Source: a virus | Lineage: Duplodnaviria; Heunggongvirae; Uroviricota; Caudoviricetes | Reading direction: 5' to 3' (one strand) | IMG/VR virus record: IMGVR_UViG_2657245091_000008 | DNA length: 64,000 bases | In this document: positions 2,042-54,890 of the stretch, piece after piece | Position numbering within the stretch: the stretch's first letter is position 1 | How the letters are laid out: each line of letters begins with the position of its first letter | Program-made: the position numbers and the translations under genes | The notes under the pieces: model-generated | Seen by the model: the letters and a program-made list of their open reading frames with translations, nothing else | The model's database searches: none | What the model was told of the DNA's origin: nothing

Positions 2042-2947
2042 TTAACGTTCTGCTTCACCACCAACGGCCTCCACCAGCGAAGTGAACATCGCGGATAATT
2101 CAGCAGTAAACAGGATAAAGTCAGCGTCAAATCGTTGCGCAACATCCTCTCGATCAATATCGTCGTTCTGGTCGTACAATTCGTCGCTGAACGACAAAGC
2201 CTTGATACTCATATCGTCATTCAGTCTGAAAAATGCACGGTCTTGCCAGTTAACCGCAACTGTGGTTGCAACCTTACCAGCTTCTATATGACTCATGATC
2301 TCGTCGGATAGCAGGTCCACTTTTTTGCAGCGGACCGCGCCGCCATCATCAAGCAATGCTTTTAAGGTCGCTTCCTCACCGGCACGGAAACCGTTCGGGA
2401 AGCCATTTTTAATCCAGCCAGTGATGGTCAGTTCTAATGGGTCTTTCGGAGAGAAGGGGACAACGGGCAAGCTGCCAAGCGATTTCCGTAACAAAGCCAG
2501 CTGATCCTCTGCTTTTTTAGCACTGCTGGCCTCGACAAAAACCAGATGATTGCTTCGGTCTATCAGGATTTTAGCGACTGATTTTCTCGTGAAAGCACGA
2601 GGAAGCAGAGAGTGAAGCACTTCATCCTTCAGCGAATCTTTTTCAGTCTTCTTCAGCTTTCTGTCTTGCTCTTCTTCAAGTGTCAGGATTTTTTTCTGTA
2701 ACTCTTCTTTGAGCACTTGAGAGGGTAGGATTTTTTCCTCTCGTTTATGCTGTATCAGAAGAAAACCTTGGTATTCATGGGTGAGGTTGTCGCCAAGAAC
2801 GGGGGTCCAACCAGCTTTAGCCATATCCTGAGAACCGCATGGGGTAAACACAAACTTGCTAAGGGCTGCATTTACTTCTGCAGTATCCCAGCTAACTTCG
2901 CGTGAAAGACGATAGATGAAGATATTTTTGAAAGCGACTGATCTCAT
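2042..2947 (-). CDS. rdgC: recombination-associated protein RdgC homolog
   Basis: 301-aa ORF; N-terminal [12 protein letters not shown]...[14 protein letters not shown] is characteristic of RdgC. Confidence 0.85.
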
Positions 2948-2953
2948 GTCTCA

Positions 2954-2997
2954 CCATTTGTGTTAGAAAATACATATTAATTATCTAACACAAATGG
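2954..2997. promoter_or_regulatory. palindromic pair of operator-like half sites (CCATTTGTGTTAGA ... TCTAACACAAATGG)
   Basis: 14-bp perfect inverted repeat with 16-bp AT-rich spacer immediately upstream of the rdgC-like start; contains the recurrent TGTTAGAAA core. Confidence 0.5.
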
Positions 2998-3006
2998 GTG
3001 CATTTT

Positions 3007-3660
3007 CTATCCTTTCTTGAAATCGAAGTTGCTAGCAGTGGCCTGAAAGGTTCCTCCTGCCTTGAAAGCTATGTCTCCGTTAGCGGTGACAGCAATATTT
3101 TCCCCTTTAACATTGATGTTGTTGGCTGATTTGACGTTAACACTCCCTCCTGCATTCACGATTACATCAGCCGGACCAATGATATATATCTGCCCGGACT
3201 CATTCATGCCAATCCTTGAGCCTGCTGCCGTATTGGCAATTTCATAGCCGCCACCAGCAGTTCGTACTTCAAGAATATTGTTGCGGTGAATAACGAAGTC
3301 TTTCGTTGCTGAGATTTGGGGGCGGGGAGGTGCTCCATCTACTTCCGGCGGCGTCCAGCCGTTGCCTTTGCCAGATGCTTCTGGTGCAACGTTTGGAATT
3401 CCTCCCGGTGCATCCTGAGCGGCACCAACTATCATTGGGCGTCTGGTGTCTATTCGACCGTTAACATCTAAATAAGGAAACTCTACCCAGACCAGGTCAC
3501 CTTTGACTGTGGGTACAAAAGCGTTCCCGATGGGTAACTGGTATTCCGCCCAGGGTAGATCGTCATCAGGAACGCCATTCCAGTCAGGTAAAACACGGAC
3601 TTGAGCACGCATAAGCCCTGCCGGGTGCACAGTTCCAACAATTTGCGCTCTACGCTTCAT
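3007..3660 (-). CDS. hypothetical protein, Gly-rich C-terminal repeats (last gene of a 4-gene operon)
   Basis: 217-aa ORF; start overlaps the stop of the upstream gene; C-terminal G/N/V-rich repeat (NVKSANNINVKGENIAVTANGDIAFKAGG). Confidence 0.5.
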   Translation of the reverse strand: MKRRAQIVGTVHPAGLMRAQVRVLPDWNGVPDDDLPWAEYQLPIGNAFVPTVKGDLVWVEFPYLDVNGRIDTRRPMIVGAAQDAPGGIPNVAPEASGKGNGWTPPEVDGAPPRPQISATKDFVIHRNNILEVRTAGGGYEIANTAAGSRIGMNESGQIYIIGPADVIVNAGGSVNVKSANNINVKGENIAVTANGDIAFKAGGTFQATASNFDFKKG

Positions 3661-7126: not shown

Positions 7127-7486
7127 ATGAACATTAAACCTATCCGTACAGAACAAGATTATGAGGCCGCACTGCGTGCGGTCGAACCGATGTTCGATAA
7201 CGAACCGGAAATGAATACTCCGGAAGGTGATTTCTTTGAGGTTATGAGTCTTCTCATTGAGGAGTACGAGAAAAAACATTACCCAATTGAGCCACCATCA
7301 CCTATTGAGGCCATTAAATTCCGTATGGAACAGCAAGGGCTGACCGTGAAGGATCTGGAACCGGCGATTGGTAAGTCAAATCGTGTTTACGAAGTGCTAA
7401 ATGGGACACGAAATTTGACGTTACCTATGATTCGCCGTTTACATTCCCAGTTTGGCATTCCTCTTGAAAGCTTGGTTGGTATTTGA
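7127..7486 (+). CDS. second HTH protein, HigA-like with C-terminal HTH
   Basis: 119-aa ORF; C-terminal HTH (GLTVKDLEPAIGKSNRVYEVLNGTR); no cognate toxin gene directly upstream. Confidence 0.5.
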   Translation: MNIKPIRTEQDYEAALRAVEPMFDNEPEMNTPEGDFFEVMSLLIEEYEKKHYPIEPPSPIEAIKFRMEQQGLTVKDLEPAIGKSNRVYEVLNGTRNLTLPMIRRLHSQFGIPLESLVGI

Positions 7487-7548
7487 GTTTGGCGGTCTGG
7501 ATGACCGCTATTTTCATAAAATAGATATTAGAAATCACGGTAGTTTAT

Positions 7549-8277
7549 ATGAATACAGATTCATCAACAGAAAAATTGACTGAAAATGATCTAATCAAAG
7601 TATCTTTTGGAGATGCCATAAAAGACAAGCTATTTAATAAAGTGTTTGCATATATATTAATTTCTTTTCTAATTATTAATTGGAAAGATATACTAATATT
7701 GATGAAGTCAAAGGATGATATCCTATATACTTTATCTGTAACATTTGTTGGAGGTAAGATTCCTCTAGTTTATGAAGGCGTTTTGTCTCCTTGGCTTTAT
7801 CATTTTTGCTTGCCATTTATTTTTGGAATTATTGCATCAATTGCAGCTCCGATTGTCACTCTTTGCGTATCAAAGCTAACAAGTAAAATATATACAGAGA
7901 TAAGGTATTTGGATGCCGACATGGATCAAAATAAAAGAAAGGCGTTGCAAATAAAAGAGACTGAAATAATAAAAAGCATTAATGATACACAATTCAACAA
8001 AAGAATTATGGATGAAAATAAAAATGAACTTGAGAGATTGCTTAGGCAGCAAAAAGAGATTATGGCGGCAATAAAGTTATTATATGATGATGTTGGAGTT
8101 ATCATTGAGCTTTTTAAAAGTAGAGGGGTTGGTATTGACTCCCCAGAAAAGTTATATGATTTTGTAATGGCAATAAAGAAGACTTCGCTTTATAATGGCG
8201 ATCATGATTTTAATAAATTGGTTGCTGATATTTCAAATTTATTTGATAAAACGGAAATTGATTTTTCAAAAAGATGA
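7549..8277 (+). CDS. hypothetical membrane protein encoded in a strongly AT-rich islet
   Basis: 242-aa ORF; two hydrophobic segments then a charged coiled-coil-like tail; base composition clearly lower in GC than the flanks. Confidence 0.5.
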   Translation: MNTDSSTEKLTENDLIKVSFGDAIKDKLFNKVFAYILISFLIINWKDILILMKSKDDILYTLSVTFVGGKIPLVYEGVLSPWLYHFCLPFIFGIIASIAAPIVTLCVSKLTSKIYTEIRYLDADMDQNKRKALQIKETEIIKSINDTQFNKRIMDENKNELERLLRQQKEIMAAIKLLYDDVGVIIELFKSRGVGIDSPEKLYDFVMAIKKTSLYNGDHDFNKLVADISNLFDKTEIDFSKR

Positions 8278-13671: not shown

Positions 13672-13980
13672 ATTGGCAGCCTCCTTTTGCTAAGTTAAGG
13701 AGCTACCGCGTGAGGTTCCAATCTCAATGGCGGTAGCACTGACTGGGTTGGAACTACCGGCGCAAAAGGGAACCGGCCTGCCTTTCGGCAGCCCAGCCAG
13801 CACTACCATTGATCTCTGAGCTAAACGCTACGTATGGCTGTGCGATGGCATGACACAAAAAAAGACGCTTTCGGCGTCTGTGTCGCCTTTTGCATTATCC
13901 GGGGTTCCAATCCCGGCACCCGTTTTTCTAAGGTGCCGTAGAAATATACCCCACGATAATGCCAGGGCGCAACAGTCAGT
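13672..13980 (-). ncRNA. structured untranslated leader, candidate c4-like antisense RNA region (copy 1)
   Basis: No credible ORF; GGTTCCAATC occurs twice (13706-13715, 13903-13912) with a partial complement at 13736-13745; hairpin plus T run on the minus strand around 13856-13880. Confidence 0.3.
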
Positions 13981-39560: not shown

Positions 39561-40014
39561 AACGTCTCCTTTTTTACGCGCGCGACTATCCCCCGGAAGT
39601 ACCGGTAGTGATGTCGTAACTTCGTATTAATTAAGGGGTACAGCCTGAGCGGCTATATGATGAATTGAAAGGAGTTGTGGCGGTGGTGCCTCCACCTGCC
39701 AGGTTAGCCACTCCTGGCGACGTCACTTATCAGAACGTAGTGAATGAAAATGGCTTCGTCACGAGCGCATAGCCGCAATTACCACAACGGAAACGGCGCT
39801 CGCATTAATTAAACGCCTTTTCCTGTTGTGCGCCGTACTCTTCCGGCTGTCACACCGAATCGCCAGGATGGTGAGTCCCTGAGTCCGCTATCCCTCCAGC
39901 GGTGACTTGCACATTCCGGCTACCTGATGTGCCCATGCAGTGTTAGTAAGGTACCTAACAGCTACACCAGACCGCTAACGACGCATGTGCCATACGTCGT
40001 GTTACAACCAAATA

Positions 40015-40090
40015 TGGTGGCCCCTACCGGATTTGAACCGGTGACCGTGCGATTATGAGTCGCCTGCTCTAACCACTGAGCTAAAGGGCC
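40015..40090 (-). tRNA. tRNA-Ile (anticodon CAU, ileX-like) or tRNA-Met
   Basis: Minus-strand GGCCCTTTAGCTCAGTGGTTAGAGCAGGCGACTCATAATCGC...GGTTCAAATCC...GGGGCCACCA; cloverleaf with CAU anticodon and encoded CCA; very close to E. coli ileX as I recall it. Confidence 0.8.
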
Positions 40091-40227
40091 AGATTACTGT
40101 TAATTCCGCTTACGCTTTTTGCCAGAACCGCGTAAGGCTTTTGCCGCTTGCTCGACCCCATATGCAACCACCAGCAAAAATAAAAATGTCCAACCAGGGT
40201 TCTTATCGGCAAACGCCCAAAAATTCA

Positions 40228-40551
40228 TCACTTACAGCCACCTTGCATTTCCTCGGATAATTCATTGATTTTAGTGCTCAATAAGTAATCAAAGTAAAGA
40301 TAAAACACAAAAGTAACGATAGTGCTTAAAGTGTCTGAAATTGCGTATTTCAGCTCAGGAAGCATGACAAAGCAGACAAATAGCGGAAGAAATAACTGCA
40401 CTATGCACAGGCTCTCCTTCCACAACCATCTATATCTGAAGTCTGACAACAAAAACTCCATTGCTTGAAACTTTATTAGATTGCGGTGCCTGGTGCCTCC
40501 AGGTGACGTTAACCAGTTAACAATTAACGCCGGGATGTTTGACTTAACCAC
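40228..40551 (-). CDS. possible small membrane protein between tRNA genes
   Basis: 107-aa AT-rich ORF with hydrophobic stretches; no clear ribosome-binding site. Confidence 0.25.
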   Translation of the reverse strand: MVKSNIPALIVNWLTSPGGTRHRNLIKFQAMEFLLSDFRYRWLWKESLCIVQLFLPLFVCFVMLPELKYAISDTLSTIVTFVFYLYFDYLLSTKINELSEEMQGGCK

Positions 40552-40711
40552 TAAGGAGGATTGTTTTAACTGTTCCGCGTGCGCTTAGCCGCATTCACCG
40601 CAATGGTAAGAGCACTTGGCTGGCTGGGCGGCGATGACGCCTGTACGCATTTGGTGATCCGGTTCTGCTTCCGGCATTCGCTTAATTAGCCAAATACTCT
40701 TAACGTTGCGC

Positions 40712-40798
40712 TGGCGGAGAGTAATGGAATCGAACCATCATCGCTTGCGCAATGGGACGGTTTTCAAGACCGCTTGAGCACCATGCTCCCTACTCTCC
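40712..40798 (-). tRNA. class II tRNA, anticodon UGA (tRNA-Ser-like)
   Basis: 87 nt; acceptor GGAGAGT/ACTCTCC, anticodon loop CUUGAAA, variable arm with GCAA tetraloop, T loop TTCGATT, discriminator G, encoded CCA. Confidence 0.65.
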
Positions 40799-41170
40799 CG
40801 TTATTGTGGCGACCGGTGCTGATCTCCGGCTTGCGGTTATTTCAGACTCTCACGGGCGTTTAATTGCCCCGCCGAACAGCTCTTTTCCGCAATAGCTGCA
40901 ATGTCTTTCGCGCATCAGCCTGCGCATTCACCACAATGTTGAGAACACTGGTTGTCACGCTGCAACGCAACATTTATTCGTAGATTGGGATATGACCCCG
41001 TTACGCCAGTGTTCTCAACGTTGTAGTGCCGGTTACGGTTCCGGCCAGGCCTCTTCCTCAACGGGGTGTTCTCCATACGGACTACCGTTTATTGGTCGTT
41101 CCTGCGGTTTATGTTGTGAAGCCAGATGCTTATCTTCTGGTTGCTTCAAAGAGCTGCACTTCCTCACAAC

Positions 41171-41244
41171 GGTAAGGGTACTTCGTAGGGATTCGAACCC
41201 TCTGCCAAGCTCGGCGATCTCCGACGTCGCAAAATACCCTTACC
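41171..41244 (-). other. tRNA-like fragment / degenerate tRNA
   Basis: Contains a T-arm-like GGGTTCGAATCCC and a 10-bp terminal inverted repeat (GGTAAGGGTA...TACCCTTACC) but no foldable anticodon or D arm. Confidence 0.3.
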
Positions 41245-41252
41245 TGTTGTGC

Positions 41253-41328
41253 TGGTGCCGATTAACGGACTCGAACCGCTGACCATTCGCTTACAAAGCG
41301 ACTGCTCTACCAACTGAGCTAAATCGGC
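41253..41328 (-). tRNA. tRNA-Thr (anticodon UGU)
   Basis: GCCGATTTAGCTCAGTTGGTAGAGCAGTCGCTTTGTAAGCGAATGGTCAGCGGTTCGAGTCCGTTAATCGGCACCA on the minus strand. Confidence 0.85.
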
Positions 41329-41332
41329 AATT

Positions 41333-41419
41333 TGGTGGGGAGTGATGGAGTCGAACCACCCGAGTCGCAATGACAGTAGATTTACAGTCTACCCCGCTAC
41401 CCCTACGGACTAACTCCCC
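41333..41419 (-). tRNA. tRNA-Tyr (anticodon GUA)
   Basis: 87-nt class II tRNA; anticodon arm GTAGACTGTAAATCTAC, T loop GGTTCGACTCC, discriminator A, CCA. Confidence 0.8.
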
Positions 41420-41424
41420 TAAAG

Positions 41425-41501
41425 TGGCGATGGTGGGTGGATTCGAACCACCGACCGACAGCTTAGAAGGCTGCTGCTCTATCCTACTGAGCTACACCAT
41501 C
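41425..41501 (-). tRNA. tRNA-Arg (anticodon UCU, rare AGA/AGG decoder)
   Basis: GATGGTGTAGCTCAGTAGGATAGAGCAGCAGCCTTCTAAGCTGTCGGTCGGTGGTTCGAATCCACCCACCATCGCCA. Confidence 0.8.
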
Positions 41502-42735
41502 ACTTGCCGGGTACGTCTCCGGCGAGGGCTTCCACCTCCGTATGCTTTTCGGCGCACCGCGCCCTGGCTGCAATTCGGTAACAGGGGATGCATAACCCTG
41601 GCTTCCAGCGTGATTAGCGCCTTCAGCATGACGGGATATACCCGTTACAAGAAATTCCCCCAGGATGCCATTAAGCAATGGCTGTTACGCGGGAGGGACG
41701 TAACAGGTAAGGGCGCTGACCAGAAAGACCTGACCCTTCTCATTCATCTGGTTAATCACACCAGCGCCCTTGCCTGTTATGCCTCCCCGTTCCCTAATAC
41801 ACAGACGGGGACACTCTGCGGTCGATTTTTTGACGGGGGACGACTCATACCCCGTGGCGTCTGGCTTCTTAGGCCGCTACCATCATCAGATCATCGTTTG
41901 CATTTACTTTAATGGTCGGTTTCTAAACCGCCGCAAAGTCGCTAACCATGACGAAAACCCTAAAAAAGCCCACCCGAAGATGGGCAAATACGCTACATCT
42001 CACACAAGAAAGAAGCCGACTGCCTGAGCTGGATTCACTTTCAAATGCCCGCAGAAAGGGATCACAAGTCGGCTTCTTTCTTGATGCGGCACTCTCTCCG
42101 CCCGTCACCGCTCTGTCTCGGTTGTCGCGTTTGCCACGCCAGCCGTAACGAGGTTTAAAGTCTTTGCACGTTTCCATCACTCGACTGCCGTCTGTGGCTG
42201 TTCGTTGCAGCGGGGGTGCCTCCCCCTGGGGATATCCCCGGCCTTACCCCATTCTTTCAAGACACAATGCAAGGCCACATCCGCATAGGTGCATTACCGC
42301 AACATTAAGGAGACTCAGGGCAAAAGGTAACCGCCACAAAAATCCCTATGCCTCCTTAATGTTGAAGATGTGCATTGATGATTAGATGCAGCATGTACTG
42401 TTACTCTCTGCCGGACCATCATCAATGAACACCTTAAAAAGACCTTCCGTGGCTCAACATGTATTGTCGTTTACTCCGCAAAGTGCTCTCTCTGAAACCA
42501 CTTTCCGCACTAAACCTGTTGAACTTTGGTCAGCTCGGTGCCAAAGCGTGCTTTTGCTTTACTATACTTTTCTAACACTTTAATTTGTTAACAGCCGGTG
42601 GGCAAACAATAACCAATAAGTGACTATCAAGCCCAGCAAGCGAAACGTGGGTGCCGCCCACCAGCAAGGAAAATTCTATGTTAAGTTATCATCACAATCA
42701 ATACATTCGAATTGTGATTTTAGATTTCTAACACA

Positions 42736-43959
42736 TTACTTCCCGTAAAGATCTTCTACGCCCCCATTCTTCTTATCCCATTCGTTCGCCCATACCCGGC
42801 AAGCGTCAATGATTTCCTGACGACGATCTCCTTGCATGAACGGGATGCTTTCATGGAAACAGCTTGGAATGCAGGCCACACTGAATACGGTATCAAACTC
42901 CGTCTGCTTGATTGCCTCCAGCGTCTCTGGACGCATTTTTAATTCATCGATTGGCGCATCCTTAGAGTCCATAATCCGGCGATATAAGCGCGGAAAATCC
43001 GTCTCCAGGTACGCCATAATTTTATCTGCGAGACATTCGTCTATGTCGGTATTCCAGTCCTTTTCGAAGCCCGGCAGGCGATAGTAAAGCGGCGTTCCCC
43101 ATACCGATGGGATCACATCCATCGTTAACAGGCGATTGGTTCTGATTTGTTGATGGTAATTAGCCGTCAGCAGTGCTTCGCCACGCTGCCCAGTTTCCGC
43201 AACCAGGCCGTGCGGATACTCATGGATGTAGGCAATGGCATCCCTTCCATCATACATAAGTGGAAATGTCTCTGGTCTTTGTCCCATGCCACAAGCACGG
43301 TTCAGATCGTGACCAAGCTGTGAGCACTCTCGCTTTAATGTTTCGATAATGCTCTGCGCTGTAGCCAACTTTTTACGCAGTGTGACGCCTTCGCCTTGAT
43401 AATCAATGCATTGCTGATTGAGCTTGGTTAAACGCTCTTTTAGTTCCCGGCGCTCTCTTTTCAGCGTGCGGTTATCCTTCTCCGCAACATCCAGCCGCTT
43501 TGTCAGGCTGGGCGGATAGTCTTTTTTGTAACGGTTCAAATCGGCTTCGGCAGATTTACGCAGTGTATTTGCCTGTTCAAGACGCGCTTCCAGATTGCCG
43601 ATCTCATTACGCATATTCGCGGCAAATTGATTAACTGCATCACCCAGGCTTTCAACTGTCGCTGATACGCCTGTGACTTGTGAAAAACGGATCAAGCCAT
43701 CATTAACGGCTTGTTGGTATTCCTCAAACTGATCCACCAGCTTATTGTAATCAACTGCCCCATCATCAAGCAGCTTGTTGATTTCCGCCACCAGGTTATC
43801 TGTAGTGGCAATGACACTCTCGTGCAGTCGCTTTGACAGGTCATCACCCGGATTCCGTTTCTGTATAAGAGCGATTTGTGTGCGCAGCGTTTCAATTGCT
43901 GTCGAGATAATTTCCAGATTAGAAGTATCAGTGTGTTGACTCATTGCTGTTCCCGTCAC
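42736..43959 (-). CDS. hypothetical coiled-coil protein
   Basis: 407-aa ORF; operator-like sites both upstream (43962-43988) and at its 3' end (42719-42738). Confidence 0.5.
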   Translation of the reverse strand: MTGTAMSQHTDTSNLEIISTAIETLRTQIALIQKRNPGDDLSKRLHESVIATTDNLVAEINKLLDDGAVDYNKLVDQFEEYQQAVNDGLIRFSQVTGVSATVESLGDAVNQFAANMRNEIGNLEARLEQANTLRKSAEADLNRYKKDYPPSLTKRLDVAEKDNRTLKRERRELKERLTKLNQQCIDYQGEGVTLRKKLATAQSIIETLKRECSQLGHDLNRACGMGQRPETFPLMYDGRDAIAYIHEYPHGLVAETGQRGEALLTANYHQQIRTNRLLTMDVIPSVWGTPLYYRLPGFEKDWNTDIDECLADKIMAYLETDFPRLYRRIMDSKDAPIDELKMRPETLEAIKQTEFDTVFSVACIPSCFHESIPFMQGDRRQEIIDACRVWANEWDKKNGGVEDLYGK

Positions 43960-44568: not shown

Positions 44569-45063
44569 TTAATCAAGACAAACATACTCCGTGATAGCTT
44601 TTATGGCTTCAGCGGCACTGCGCGCCTCAAAGCAGTAGTAACCGGCTTCAGTGAGGCGAGTCATCCAGACGAGTTGTTCGGGAGTCAGGCGATTTCTCCC
44701 ATGTTTCATCTCAATGCGCATTCCGTGGTATCCCCCACAAGCAAGGTCTATAGAAAGATCGGGATATCCCTTCTTTTGGCCCTCTGCCACCATTTTTATT
44801 GCCGTCCTTATGCCTCGCAGGCCACCGTTTGGAGTGGCGTGAGTATGCTCATACACATAACGCATATTGCGATACAACCAGTCCAGGACGCGAACCTGCT
44901 CGTAATGCTCATGGTTCCTTTTGATTAGATCTGGGTTTTTCTCCAGTTCTCTAAGAGCTGCGGCATGTGGGGATGTTTCAGAATATTCACTGCGACGCCT
45001 TCTCTTTCGCGCTATTTTTCTAACACACCCATTGATAGTAAATGTGCGAAATAATAACAACAA
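44569..45063 (-). CDS. VRR-NUC domain nuclease (start uncertain)
   Basis: ...HATPNGGLRG...GQKKGYPDLSIDL...MRIEMKHGRNRLTPEQLVW matches the VRR-NUC pattern; the ORF begins at TTG and runs through an operator-like site, so the true start is probably further downstream. Confidence 0.55.
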   Translation of the reverse strand: MLLLFRTFTINGCVRKIARKRRRRSEYSETSPHAAALRELEKNPDLIKRNHEHYEQVRVLDWLYRNMRYVYEHTHATPNGGLRGIRTAIKMVAEGQKKGYPDLSIDLACGGYHGMRIEMKHGRNRLTPEQLVWMTRLTEAGYYCFEARSAAEAIKAITEYVCLD

Positions 45064-54568: not shown

Positions 54569-54890
54569 AGTTACGGCCTCACTAACAGGTTTAACAACCT
54601 GCCACCCGCTGTCAAACAGGTGGCAGGACGTGACAGGGTTGACAGACTGGCGTTAGTGAAACCAGCAGGCCGAAGCCTCCCCATCACGCCCCACCATAAT
54701 TCGGGCGTAACGCGGTTTACGGACACAAAAATACCGCAATATCGGAAATCTGCGGTTGTCCGCACTAACATTCAGGCTGTCAAACCCGGTCGCAGAATTT
54801 GCTACGACGGCATGAATATAAGCCTGAAAACATGGAAGATCAACTAAAAATTTCAGCAATGGATGACTTCAGTCGATGATGCAGATCATA
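54569..54890 (-). ncRNA. structured untranslated leader, candidate c4-like antisense RNA region (copy 2)
   Basis: CTGTCAAAC occurs twice (54609-54617, 54777-54785) with its complement GTTGACAG at 54638-54645; 9-bp stem hairpin CCTGCCACC...GGTGGCAGG. Confidence 0.3.

Follow-up and report, generated by a model that had tools for sequence, protein, structure and literature searches.

Predicted long hairpins beside the tRNA genes of a P1/D6-like phage as candidate RNase III processing stalks of a hairpin family in temperate enterobacterial phages

The three repeat copies that flank the tRNA genes of IMG/VR record IMGVR_UViG_2657245091_000008, a P1/D6-like phage, are the 3' arms of long hairpins in minus-strand RNA (copy 3 in hairpin A, copy 2 in hairpin B, and copy 1 in hairpin C). 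By arm sequence and predicted fold, the hairpins of this window (the whole 64,000-nt stretch analyzed) are members of a large hairpin family carried by temperate Enterobacterales phages, and we think it probable that they are RNase III processing stalks separating tRNAs, STnc100-like small-RNA modules, and loop "cargo." According to this explanation, the hairpins, with stems of about 20 bp, form in the leader of the P1-type "ban" operon transcript, on the minus strand, and host RNase III would cut both arms mid-stem. The upstream tRNA (Thr or Ser) would be freed with a short 3' trailer that exonucleases could trim, the hairpin top with its loop would be released as a small RNA with paired ends, and the downstream module (an STnc100/PasD-like RNA, a tRNA, or an mRNA) would gain a new 5'-monophosphate end. 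The hairpins, the family and its distribution, the tRNA junctions, and the mosaic of modules are shown by the present analysis, and the RNase III dependence of the 190-nt DicF 5' end comes from the literature on a homologue in the Qin prophage; cleavage of the window's own hairpins, with its consequences, is inferred.

Hairpins, tRNAs, and modules of the leader

The first-pass annotation had described three related copies of about 25 bp and an inverted partner for the second, and all four of the strings that it quoted are present where it placed them. Copies 1 and 2 form a 27-nt direct repeat of 85% identity (40590-40616 and 40923-40949), copy 3 is of the same family, though more diverged, and the inverted pair of copy 2 has 23-nt arms that are 91% complementary and 54 nt apart (40929-40951 and 41006-41028). 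The inverted partner is not unique to copy 2, however; copies 1 and 3 have partners at 40689-40710 and 41230-41251, respectively, and all three copies are therefore 3' arms. The extent of the repeat unit also has to be redrawn: the GGTGAATGC part of copies 1 and 2 lies outside the stem and is the start of the next RNA module.

All features described below are on the minus strand. Hairpin A (41165-41251) pairs a 5' arm at 41251-41230 with copy 3 as the 3' arm at 41186-41165; it has a predicted minimum free energy (MFE) of -40.3 kcal/mol with 21 arm pairs and lies in a region (40910-41250) that is 99% identical to P1. In hairpin B (40929-41028; MFE, -50.6 kcal/mol), the 5' arm at 41028-41006 is the inverted partner reported earlier and the 3' arm at 40951-40929 is the stem part of copy 2, whereas hairpin C (40599-40710) is predicted to pair 40710-40689 with the stem part of copy 1 at 40620-40599. 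The fold z-scores of these three hairpins are -3.5, -5.5, and -5.0, the middle value (more exactly, -5.45) being that of B. Three copies proved to be an incomplete count of the family, as the same leader holds three more members. Hairpin D (41699-41781), upstream of the tRNA-Arg/Tyr/Thr run, has 20-nt arms with 18 matches and an arm energy of -31.3 kcal/mol; hairpin E (42298-42366; arm energy, -32.2 kcal/mol) is near the leader start, upstream of the "dicF-like" region of P1; and hairpin F (39778-39830), downstream of the anticodon-CAT tRNA, is a weaker, short-loop element with arms CACAACAGGAAAAGGCG...CGCCGTTTCCGTTGTG and an arm energy of -25.3 kcal/mol. Arm energies are thus -28 to -32 kcal/mol for A to E and about -25 kcal/mol for F. 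Our permissive hairpin scan returned many false positives at -20 to -24 kcal/mol, and we used hairpins at about -25 kcal/mol or below with family-like arms.

All six hairpins are co-oriented, on the tRNA strand, within one 2.6-kb noncoding, tRNA-bearing leader whose longest open reading frame (ORF) is at most 107 amino acids. Only four inverted repeats with at least 14 matched bases and a 20- to 160-nt spacer occur in the whole window, all of them in 40929-42435, and the two-arm pattern has one match against 0.00 expected in shuffled sequence; the hairpins of the window are therefore not due to chance. With 18 to 21 arm pairs per element, the stems are as long as an RNase III substrate requires (about two helical turns).

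ARAGORN and the Rfam tRNA model called only the five known tRNAs, leaving A, B, and C uncalled even at E values of up to 10. These are tRNA-Arg (UCU), tRNA-Tyr (GUA), and tRNA-Thr (UGU) at 41253-41501 (ARAGORN and Rfam), tRNA-Ser (UGA anticodon) at 40712-40798 (ARAGORN), and the anticodon-CAT tRNA at 40015-40090, which occupies the position of trnI (tRNA-Ile2) in the P1 annotation. The 5' arms of A and C begin 1 nt past the CCA of tRNA-Thr and tRNA-Ser, respectively. Between A and B lies a 139-nt module (41026-41164) that ends with a small hairpin, CCGGAACCGUAACCGG, followed by CAC and the 5' arm of B. Hairpin B is followed by a 133-nt module (40799-40931) that starts with GGUGAAUGCG, the tail of copy 2, and ends with CACCGG..GCCACAAU, a sequence able to base-pair with the outermost part of the 3' arm of B; the region of this module (40804-40950) is about 95 to 99% identical to lambdoid and Stx phages. 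The module after hairpin C (40482-40602) starts with UGCGGUGAAUGCG, the tail of copy 1, and is STnc100-like: an STnc100-like fold has at its 5' end the GGUGAAUGC tail that copies 1 and 2 share, and it scores 39.4 bits (E = 2e-7) against Rfam RF02076, below the gathering score of 47. This match begins at the outer end of C's 3' arm and runs downstream, overlapping the stem by only about 4 nt. RNAs of the STnc100/PasD kind mark the late regions of lambdoid phages (bioRxiv 10.64898/2026.05.13.724894). PHROGs searches with the small ORFs between hairpin C and the anticodon-CAT tRNA were uninformative.

The hairpin family in other phages

The canonical form of the family consists of GCACAACAGGTAAGAGCATTG, a variable loop of roughly 25 to 170 nt, and CAGTGCTCTTTCCGTTGTG; arms are CACAAC(A)GGUAAGAGCAUUG and CAGUGCUCUUUCCGUUGUG, or compensated variants of these. 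The lower stem is imperfect, with a bulge after CAAC, found at the same stem position in canonical, A, Qin, and Rac members, and often a mismatch three pairs further in, at the same position in canonical and Qin members. We found the family in lambda (44786-44862, directly after tR'), P1, D6, Stx phages, and many IMG/VR contigs. Nineteen genomes contain an exact 21-mer from the 3' arm, and 17 of these are from Enterobacterales genera. In the loci that we fetched, which were mostly IMG/VR contigs, the partner arm is present at 89 of 131 exact GCACAACAGGTAAG matches, giving 55 distinct hairpin sequences with mostly unrelated loops. The arms of the window's members align with the 63 distinct family arm pairs, and their arms and loops conform to the family pattern.

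Complementarity is kept where the arms diverge, as in GGUAAGGGUA/UACCCUUACC of A versus GUUGAGAACA/UGUUCUCAAC of B. Across the 63 distinct arm pairs, double-sided changes were seen at 14 of 19 pairs, and none of 500 shuffles reached the observed covariation score; an ungapped MAFFT alignment of the arms was 79% paired, which is an underestimate because bulged and unbulged members are out of register in it. When orientation was fixed independently, by the tail motif or the tRNA strand, the sense strand folded better in 46 of 61 unique hairpins (G-U pairs, 81 versus 45). This strand bias is moderate, and for hairpins B and D the antisense strand folds better than the sense strand. The tRNA strand carries 21 of the 26 unique hairpins that lie within 1 kb of a tRNA, and in every setting that we examined (leaders of P1-like phages, the late leader of lambda, and operons of the Qin and Rac prophages) the hairpins have one orientation relative to transcription. 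The Rac locus is at 1418480-1418565 in K-12.

At first pass, absence of the motif from orthologous tRNA regions, together with a lack of transcript ends mapping to it, had been named as a refutation; the motif is present in the orthologous tRNA regions of P1, D6, and other P1-like contigs, and the observation is not refuted. The positions of D, A, and B follow in the same order there, and the interior of the hairpin after tRNA-Thr varies by locus. Hairpin D, about 200 nt ahead of the first tRNA, is conserved in P1-like loci, the 139-nt spacing before B is invariant in them, and hairpins E and F are also found in D6. Wherever a P1-like locus has a hairpin after tRNA-Thr or tRNA-Ser, the 5' arm starts 1 nt past the CCA while the interiors differ; a tRNA-Arg shares its first 3 nt with the 3' arm in three loci.

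Proposed RNase III processing and possible module exchange

The E. coli K-12 Qin prophage has a family-like hairpin at 1649173-1649256, between ydfC and dicF. Its arms share 14 of 20 and 15 of 19 positions with the canonical arms (by hand alignment), as well as the bulge and mismatch positions; its orientation follows transcription, it sits in a noncoding part of a phage operon with a small RNA immediately downstream, and P1-type leaders likewise have a family hairpin upstream of the annotated "dicF-like" region. It appears to be a family member. Previous descriptions treat it as an isolated processing site and not as part of a family; no tRNA is adjacent to it, and the GGUGAAUGC tail is absent. 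In 1990, Faubladier and colleagues reportedly described processing by RNase III ahead of DicF within the Qin dicB operon. Formation of the 190-nt DicF RNA requires RNase III, and primer extension has located its 5' end (PMC10448788). A 190-nt RNA ending at the annotated 3' end of dicF (1649434) would begin at 1649245, in the middle of the 3' arm; by this arithmetic from the stated RNA length, the RNase III-dependent 5' end of the RNA falls inside the 3' arm of the Qin hairpin.

RNase III in vivo prefers G-C or C-G pairs between its two cuts (PMC6212723). The predicted pairs between the inferred cuts are C-G and G-C in Qin and A-U and G-C in the canonical member. The main texts of the two RNase III transcriptome studies consulted, PMC6212723 among them, do not name these prophage sites, and literature searches for the P1 ban operon and for lambdoid tRNAs in connection with RNase III found nothing. 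Daniels et al. (1988, Virology 167:568) report RNase III sites in the late transcript of lambda, and these may correspond to the canonical hairpin at 44786-44862 in the late leader. Viewed as one family, the hairpins connect the RNase III-dependent 5' end of the 190-nt DicF RNA with the STnc100/PasD small RNAs and with RNase III processing as reported for the late leader of lambda.

Among the three roles first suggested for the repeats, the evidence most favors that of signals for processing the tRNA transcript, as shown by the ~20-bp stems on the tRNA strand, by the 5' arms abutting the CCA of tRNA-Thr and tRNA-Ser, and by the family-like Qin hairpin with its RNase III-dependent DicF end. RNase III does not explain why arm sequence is nearly invariant across distant phages; the enzyme has little sequence specificity, and some further constraint on the arms is probable, such as recombination, a second binding factor, or the arm serving as the 5' terminus of the RNA that follows.

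Near-identical arms around mostly unrelated loops would also be expected if the arms acted mainly at the DNA level, as conserved inverted joints for the recombinational exchange of small noncoding modules, similar to cassette boundaries, with the RNA hairpin incidental. The mosaic structure of these loci fits such exchange. After tRNA-Thr, P1-like phages have at least three different loop sequences within the detected hairpins, units of a hairpin plus a ~130-nt module are wholly present or absent among these phages, and similarity to lambdoid and Stx phages starts or stops inside the arms. A lambda-type segment found between tR' and gene S (in lambda, HK630, and others) shares 98.5% identity with the loop of hairpin C (40687-40623); in lambda this segment follows the 3' arm, but in hairpin C it is inside the loop. 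From these alignments, the arms coincide with module-exchange breakpoints, and the only moderate strand asymmetry is in keeping with a DNA element. Nevertheless, we consider it unlikely that this is the main role of the arms: inspection by eye of the sequence directly flanking A and B showed no target-site duplication, the P1-like, lambda, Qin, and Rac settings share one orientation relative to transcription, diverged members stay complementary through compensatory changes that a recombination joint does not need, the bulge and the mismatch hold fixed stem positions in the aligned members, and the Qin member is cut as RNA. A role in DNA-level exchange may well exist alongside the RNA function, not in place of it.

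Integron attC sites and MITE terminal inverted repeats were considered, since conserved inverted ends (CACAAC...GUUGUG versus RYYYAAC...GTTRRRY in attC) surround a variable center, stem bases are unpaired, and the units are cassette-like. We rejected them: the cores GCACAAC and GTTGTGG are each at least one position off the attC consensus, the units between hairpins are 130- to 140-nt noncoding modules or tRNAs with no ORFs, target-site duplications are not evident, and orientation follows transcription.

Loop contents and remaining readings

Several loops contain tRNA-like parts. Loop A has a T-arm-like hairpin, AGGGTTCGAATCCCT (41201-41187), identical at 16 of 16 positions to the T-arm of phage tRNA-Asn, and loop B has a motif, ACGGGGUCAUAUCCCAAUC (41001-40983), that recurs in other family loops and resembles the anticodon stem-loop of initiator tRNA. 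In Stx-type members this recurrent motif reads CGGGCUCAUAACCC and in loop B of the window GGGGUCAUAUCCC, each borne on an outer stem that covaries; some variants are identical to the initiator-tRNA anticodon stem-loop at 14 of 14 positions. Canonical T-arm-like hairpins were found in 6 of 63 loops. When the loops were compared with 54 tRNAs, matches were in T-arm coordinates, except for one in the metY anticodon arm, and most loops were unmatched.

Such long and often structured loops might mean that the stems are scaffolds, either presenting and protecting functional loop RNAs (mimics of tRNA parts or small-RNA seeds) or shielding upstream RNA from 3' exonucleases, with RNase III not essential. 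The 6 T-arm-like loops and the covarying initiator-tRNA-like motif are consistent with this, and the C4 antisense RNA of P1/P7 (RF01695), two copies of which lie in the window, is already known to display functional loops on a long stem; its terminal stem of about 17 bp surrounds small functional hairpins, and it is processed from a longer phage transcript, much as is proposed for the hairpins here. In C4 RNA, RNase P carries out the processing and the 3' end resembles CCA, a feature that the family elements lack, and the sequences are unrelated. We regard the scaffold explanation as quite doubtful, as a stable stem 1 nt past the CCA would block 3' maturation of the tRNA unless it was cut, many loops have nothing in common, and the Qin homologue is an RNase III-dependent site.

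A bolder version of the RNase III model is that the hairpins are expression cassettes from which RNase III excises the stem top and loop as a small stable RNA, with many of the cargos mimicking tRNA parts. This is a long shot, and if it were true, tRNA-mimic cargos next to genuine phage tRNAs could be decoys or inhibitors of host or plasmid nucleases or factors that recognize tRNA, e.g., VapC-type toxins, which cleave the anticodon loop of initiator tRNA. Fast loop turnover with fixed arms would then be explained, and the cargos would point to a new class of RNA-based counter-defense. Other assignments for these parts were tried. A Y RNA (YrlA), tmRNA-like, or C4-like tRNA mimic in hairpin A had no Rfam support, and the order of elements is unlike that of YrlA; a boxB of H-19B-type N proteins in the initiator-tRNA-like motif was unconfirmed, the downstream ORF at the Stx locus starting with MASERSTD, which is not arginine-rich.

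It had also been suggested that the repeats are relics of tRNA gene turnover. The loops bear this out in part (the perfect tRNA-Asn-type T-arm in A and the initiator-tRNA-like stem-loop in B), and the elements do lie among tRNA genes, but the repeated arms have no tRNA counterpart. As an account of the hairpins as a whole, i.e., as decaying products of tRNA gain and loss with no present function, we find it very improbable: A, B, and C were not called by either tRNA search, most loops match none of the 54 tRNAs, and the arms and structure are conserved in hundreds of contigs and 19 genomes, a pattern that neutral decay fits poorly.

The first 8 nt of the rrn boxA, UGCUCUUUAACAA, are matched by the canonical 3' arm (UGCUCUUUCC) and the elements lie in leaders of long antiterminated transcripts, yet it is scarcely credible that they are promoters, terminators (attenuators), or boxA/nut-type antitermination elements, since no promoter-like hexamers or stem plus U-tract occur at any arm and the boxA-like string is absent from the window's members (A, GUACCCUUACC; B, GUGUUCUCAAC; D, GCGCCCUUACC) and, where present, is buried in duplex and would be split by the inferred cut. 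A nut site has a single-stranded boxA (CGCUCUUA or UGCUCUUUAACAA) and then a boxB hairpin, and we rejected this assignment because the string is confined to the canonical subfamily and is base-paired. The earlier proposal of promoter elements is not supported: no sigma-70 promoter (-35/-10 hexamers with 16- to 18-nt spacing) coincides with any arm, and 39700-42800 has a sole sigma-70-like match (42701-42673), which shares the strand of the six hairpins, precedes them all, and corresponds approximately in position to P1 Pban. No intrinsic terminator (a G+C-rich stem and then a U-tract) coincides with any of the six hairpins either; the strongest terminator-like site of the region, with a long T-run, is at 41985-41968.

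The RNase III stalks proposed here have precedents in the T7 early-region RNase III sites and the stalks of rRNA operons, where a polycistronic transcript is divided by long, imperfect stems whose cleavage frees its units; the rRNA stalks also enclose cargo RNA between two arms and are accompanied by tRNAs. Neither has sequence similarity to the present family, which differs in its strongly conserved arms, its interchangeable short cargos, and its spread in unrelated temperate phages. The DicF, lambda late-leader, and STnc100/PasD observations jointly suggest that temperate enterobacterial phages build tRNA/small-RNA operons from interchangeable units bounded by a common processing stalk. This would offer a testable route for the maturation of phage tRNAs embedded in mRNA leaders, and the arms provide a sequence handle for finding new phage small RNAs.

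No Rfam family covers the hairpins at gathering or permissive thresholds, the long stems giving only weak microRNA-like matches, and literature searches with the arm sequences as text found nothing relevant. Lambda, P1, and the Shiga toxin phages are among the best-studied genomes, and a conserved structured-RNA family in them is absent from Rfam and from the phage annotations that we examined. In P1, the family lies under two annotated ORFs, upl and plp, both of which are probably spurious.

Hairpins in the tRNA leader

The window belongs to a P1/P7/D6-like phage or phage-plasmid: region 40100-42000 is 96% identical to Escherichia phage D6 and 92% to P1, and C4 antisense RNA and isrK, both typical of P1, are present. 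All five of its tRNA genes are on the minus strand, namely tRNA-Arg (41501-41425), tRNA-Tyr (41419-41333), tRNA-Thr (41328-41253), tRNA-Ser (40798-40712), and a tRNA with anticodon CAT (40090-40015). The P1 counterpart of this region is the ban operon leader, which is transcribed from the C1-controlled promoter Pban and holds a "dicF-like region," trnA, trnT, and trnI; here, the single sigma-70-like match within 39700-42800 (42701-42673, minus) lies upstream of all hairpins and tRNAs discussed.

The first-pass annotation had described three related repeats beside the tRNA genes (copies 1, 2, and 3, at 40591-40619, 40924-40951, and 41165-41185) and an inverted partner for the second. Each quoted string was found in its place; copies 1 and 2 form a direct repeat of 27 nt with 85% identity, and copy 2 and its partner form arms of 23 nt that are 91% complementary, with 54 nt between. 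A partner is not peculiar to copy 2: copies 1 and 3 have one too. The unit is a hairpin, and what had been called the repeat is its 3' arm; copies 1 and 2 additionally include the first bases of the next module, GGTGAATGC. Read on the minus strand, the 5' and 3' arms are CACAACAGGTAAGGGTATTTTG and CGAAGTACCCTTACCGTTGTG in hairpin A (41251-41165), TACAACGTTGAGAACACTGG and CCAGTGTTCTCAACATTGTG in hairpin B (41028-40929), and CGCAACGTTAAGAGTATTTGG and CCAAGTGCTCTTACCATTGCG in hairpin C (40710-40599), with fold z-scores against shuffled sequence of -5.0, -5.5, and -3.5, respectively. A scan for CAAC...GTTG-type hairpins added D (41781-41699), E (42366-42298), and the weaker F (39830-39778), all on the minus strand of the same leader. 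Long inverted repeats (at least 14 matched bases, spacer of 20-160 nt) number only four in the entire 64-kb window, every one inside 40929-42435. Together, the z-scores, the extra members, and this clustering confirm that the repeats are not due to chance.

Family distribution and modular organization

Parts of this noncoding region are similar to many unrelated phages. Loop C (40623-40687) shares 98.5% identity with lambda-type phages, and in HK630 and lambda the C-loop-like segment sits between tR' and gene S; directly upstream of it, lambda 44786-44862 (GCACAACAGGTAAGAGCATTG, a 37-nt loop, and CCAGTGCTCTTTCCGTTGTG) is a hairpin of the same type as A to C. When IMG/VR was scanned with two exact 14-mers, one from the 5' arm and one from the 3' arm plus tail, each was found in at least 120 contigs. 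In the fetched loci, a complementary arm lay downstream of the 5'-arm 14-mer in 89 of 131 occurrences, and these 89 yielded 55 distinct hairpin sequences, whose arms hardly vary and whose loops are for the most part unrelated. Among species-representative genomes, 19 contain an exact 21-mer of the 3' arm; 17 of these belong to Enterobacterales genera, among them Klebsiella, Citrobacter, Enterobacter, Kluyvera, Rahnella, Pantoea, and Erwinia. Rfam has no family for the hairpin, and the arm sequences, searched as text, were not found in the searchable literature. The finding holds, and it reaches well past 40591-41185: this is one locus of a structured-RNA family that is widespread in temperate enterobacterial phages yet unannotated.

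Behind tRNA-Thr and tRNA-Ser, the 5' arm of a following hairpin always begins 1 nt past the CCA, both here and in all P1-like loci with such a hairpin, and the hairpin interior varies from locus to locus. In three lambdoid contigs, a 3' arm and a tRNA-Arg share 3 nt, the last of the arm and the first of the tRNA. The 13 P1-like leaders that we mapped are mosaics of tRNAs and units, each a hairpin plus a module of ~130-140 nt, and whole units are present, absent, or swapped among them. The module after C gives a subthreshold STnc100 match (39.4 bits; threshold, 47) aligned from precisely the UGCGGUGAAUGCG tail of copy 1 onward. Both STnc100 and PasD belong to the Hfq-associated small RNAs found in lambdoid late regions (bioRxiv 10.64898/2026.05.13.724894). 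Module ends have the form CACC..CAAY, which allows pairing with the outer end of the 3' arm before the module, as in lambda (GUUGUGCUG...CAGCACAAC), so that every module is bracketed by the same complementary motif.

In the P1 locus L001, three family hairpins (2525-2603, 2786-2879, and 3019-3105) lie antisense to the open reading frames upl (2567-2758) and plp (2759-3136), which also overlap trnT and are probably not real genes; L001 2525-3136 corresponds to window ~40900-41282, with the upl portion replaced here by the tRNA-Ser unit. Between cI and the gene leftward of it, the Stx2a_1447 phage locus carries (at ~1360-1760) two hairpins of the family type plus an STnc100-like module. A boxA-like CGCTCTTTTTA stands before the second of these hairpins, whose arms are of the variant CAAAAC...GTTTTG; this hairpin may be related to the dyad symmetries that have been described in H-19B nut sites.

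Proposed RNase III processing and alternative readings

Double-sided changes occur at 14 of 19 stem pairs among 63 distinct arm pairs, whose covariation score was reached by no shuffle; since the alignment is ungapped and leaves bulged and unbulged members out of register, these figures are conservative. Diverged members thus stay paired through two-sided changes, indicating that the structure is selected. Where the tail motif or the strand of neighboring tRNAs gave an independent orientation, the sense strand was the better-folding one in 46 of 61 unique hairpins (mean arm energy, -28.4 versus -25.2 kcal/mol antisense; G-U pairs, 81 versus 45); in the window, B and D have the better fold on the antisense strand. 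This moderate bias favors an RNA role on the transcribed strand. An imperfect lower stem is common to several members: an unpaired base directly follows CAAC in the canonical form (present in lambda), A, and the Qin and Rac hairpins of E. coli K-12, and a mismatch lies three pairs beyond this bulge in the canonical form and Qin, whereas B and C instead have a C-A mismatch at the last C of CAAC. In all of these, the upper stem is more regular than the lower.

Both K-12 hairpins are family-like and lie in cryptic prophages, and the Qin one offers a link to RNase III. The Qin hairpin (1649173-1649256; arms CATAACGCGAAAGCGCATGG and CCGTGCGCTTCCGGTTGTG) lies between ydfC and dicF; by hand alignment, its arms are identical to the canonical ones at 14/20 and 15/19 positions, with bulge and mismatch at the same places. 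In two studies (PMC10448788 and, as cited, Faubladier 1990), RNase III was shown to make the 5' end of a 190-nt DicF species, which is gone in an rnc mutant. A 190-nt RNA ending at the annotated dicF 3' end (1649434) would begin at 1649245, the middle of the Qin 3' arm, an arithmetic estimate from RNA length. Between the inferred staggered cuts, the two pairs would be C-G and G-C, an in vivo preference of RNase III (PMC6212723); the canonical member has A-U and G-C. The Rac hairpin (1418565-1418480, minus; 7481-7566 of the Rac prophage locus), upstream of kilR, covers position 1418502, the approximate 5' end of the small RNA KilS, at the start of the 3' arm; KilS may be a processing product and not a primary transcript. 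For lambda, RNase III sites on the late transcript were reported in a 1988 paper.

The family is best explained as RNase III processing stalks with interchangeable cargo, and we infer that the window's hairpins are likely such stalks, which the host enzyme would cut in the phage's long leader transcript. Cutting in mid-stem would detach the upstream tRNA with a short trailer, a step that seems necessary because a stable helix 1 nt past the CCA would block exonucleolytic 3' maturation. The same cut would free a small RNA, the stem top plus loop, whose ends are paired, and would give the downstream module a new 5' end; lower-stem defects would ease separation of the cut halves. RNase III sites occur in transcripts of phages such as T7 and lambda, so this kind of element is already known; for the family-level conservation, exact tRNA junctions, modular units, and tRNA-like cargos, we found no prior description in Rfam or the searchable literature.

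That the arm sequence hardly varies is not accounted for by RNase III alone, and a second constraint is likely. Similarity between phages breaks at the arms, which are therefore probably recombination joints for module exchange as well; that this is their main function we consider unlikely. Taken as sole explanations, the tRNA relics and promoter elements proposed in the first-pass annotation fail specific tests, as do a terminator, a boxA/nut site, and an attC-like site.

Loop cargo and other features of the window

Canonical T-arm-like hairpins occur in 6 of 63 family loops. The one in loop A, AGGGTTCGAATCCCT (41201-41187, minus), is a perfect T-arm inside a non-tRNA hairpin, identical at 16/16 positions to the T-arm of a phage tRNA-Asn on an IMG/VR contig. 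A second loop motif, ACGGGNNCAUANCCCAAUC, was found in 37 distinct contexts, including the window's B (41001-40983, minus), a P1 hairpin, the Stx2a_1447 phage locus, and many IMG/VR loci; 36 are in a hairpin loop near the 5' arm, and the remaining one is shortly downstream of a tRNA. The hairpins carrying it are mostly family-type, those of Stx phages having the CAAAAC...GUUUUG arm variant. Its outer stem covaries (CGUA/UACG, CUGUA/UACAG, GCGUG/CACGC, GGCGGCA/UGCCGCC, and CUGAUG/CAUCAG), and its Stx-phage variants match the anticodon stem-loop of E. coli initiator tRNA metY at 14/14 contiguous positions (CGGGCUCAUAACCC). The T-arm-like and metY-like loops suggest that the cassettes deliver mimics of tRNA parts, possibly as decoys for tRNA-targeting factors, a speculative reading that we regard as quite doubtful.

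In place of P1's tciA-tciB-tciC, the window has an unrelated ~450 bp (40100-40551) with only small, apparently hydrophobic open reading frames (77-107 aa); the two searched gave no informative PHROG match. At tRNA-Ser (UGA anticodon; 40712-40798), the Rfam tRNA-Sec model beat the general tRNA model in overlap, scoring 43.5 bits (threshold, 47); the D6 annotators noted that tRNAscan-SE left the amino acid of their tRNA at this place uncalled. The two C4 genes (13726-13936 and 54616-54821) are adjoined, one by isrK and the other by a c4-a1b1 target element, so the window holds two immunity-type regions. A perfect 17-bp inverted repeat (CAAGAAAGAAGCCGACT/AGTCGGCTTCTTTCTTG; within 42005-42083, minus) stands just upstream of a strong intrinsic terminator (41968-41985, minus); the pair occupies approximately the position of the dicF-like region annotated in P1, and the Rfam DicF model has no match there. 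Another inverted repeat of 18 nt (42365-42435; 16/18 matched, spacer of 35 nt) immediately precedes hairpin E in the same leader.
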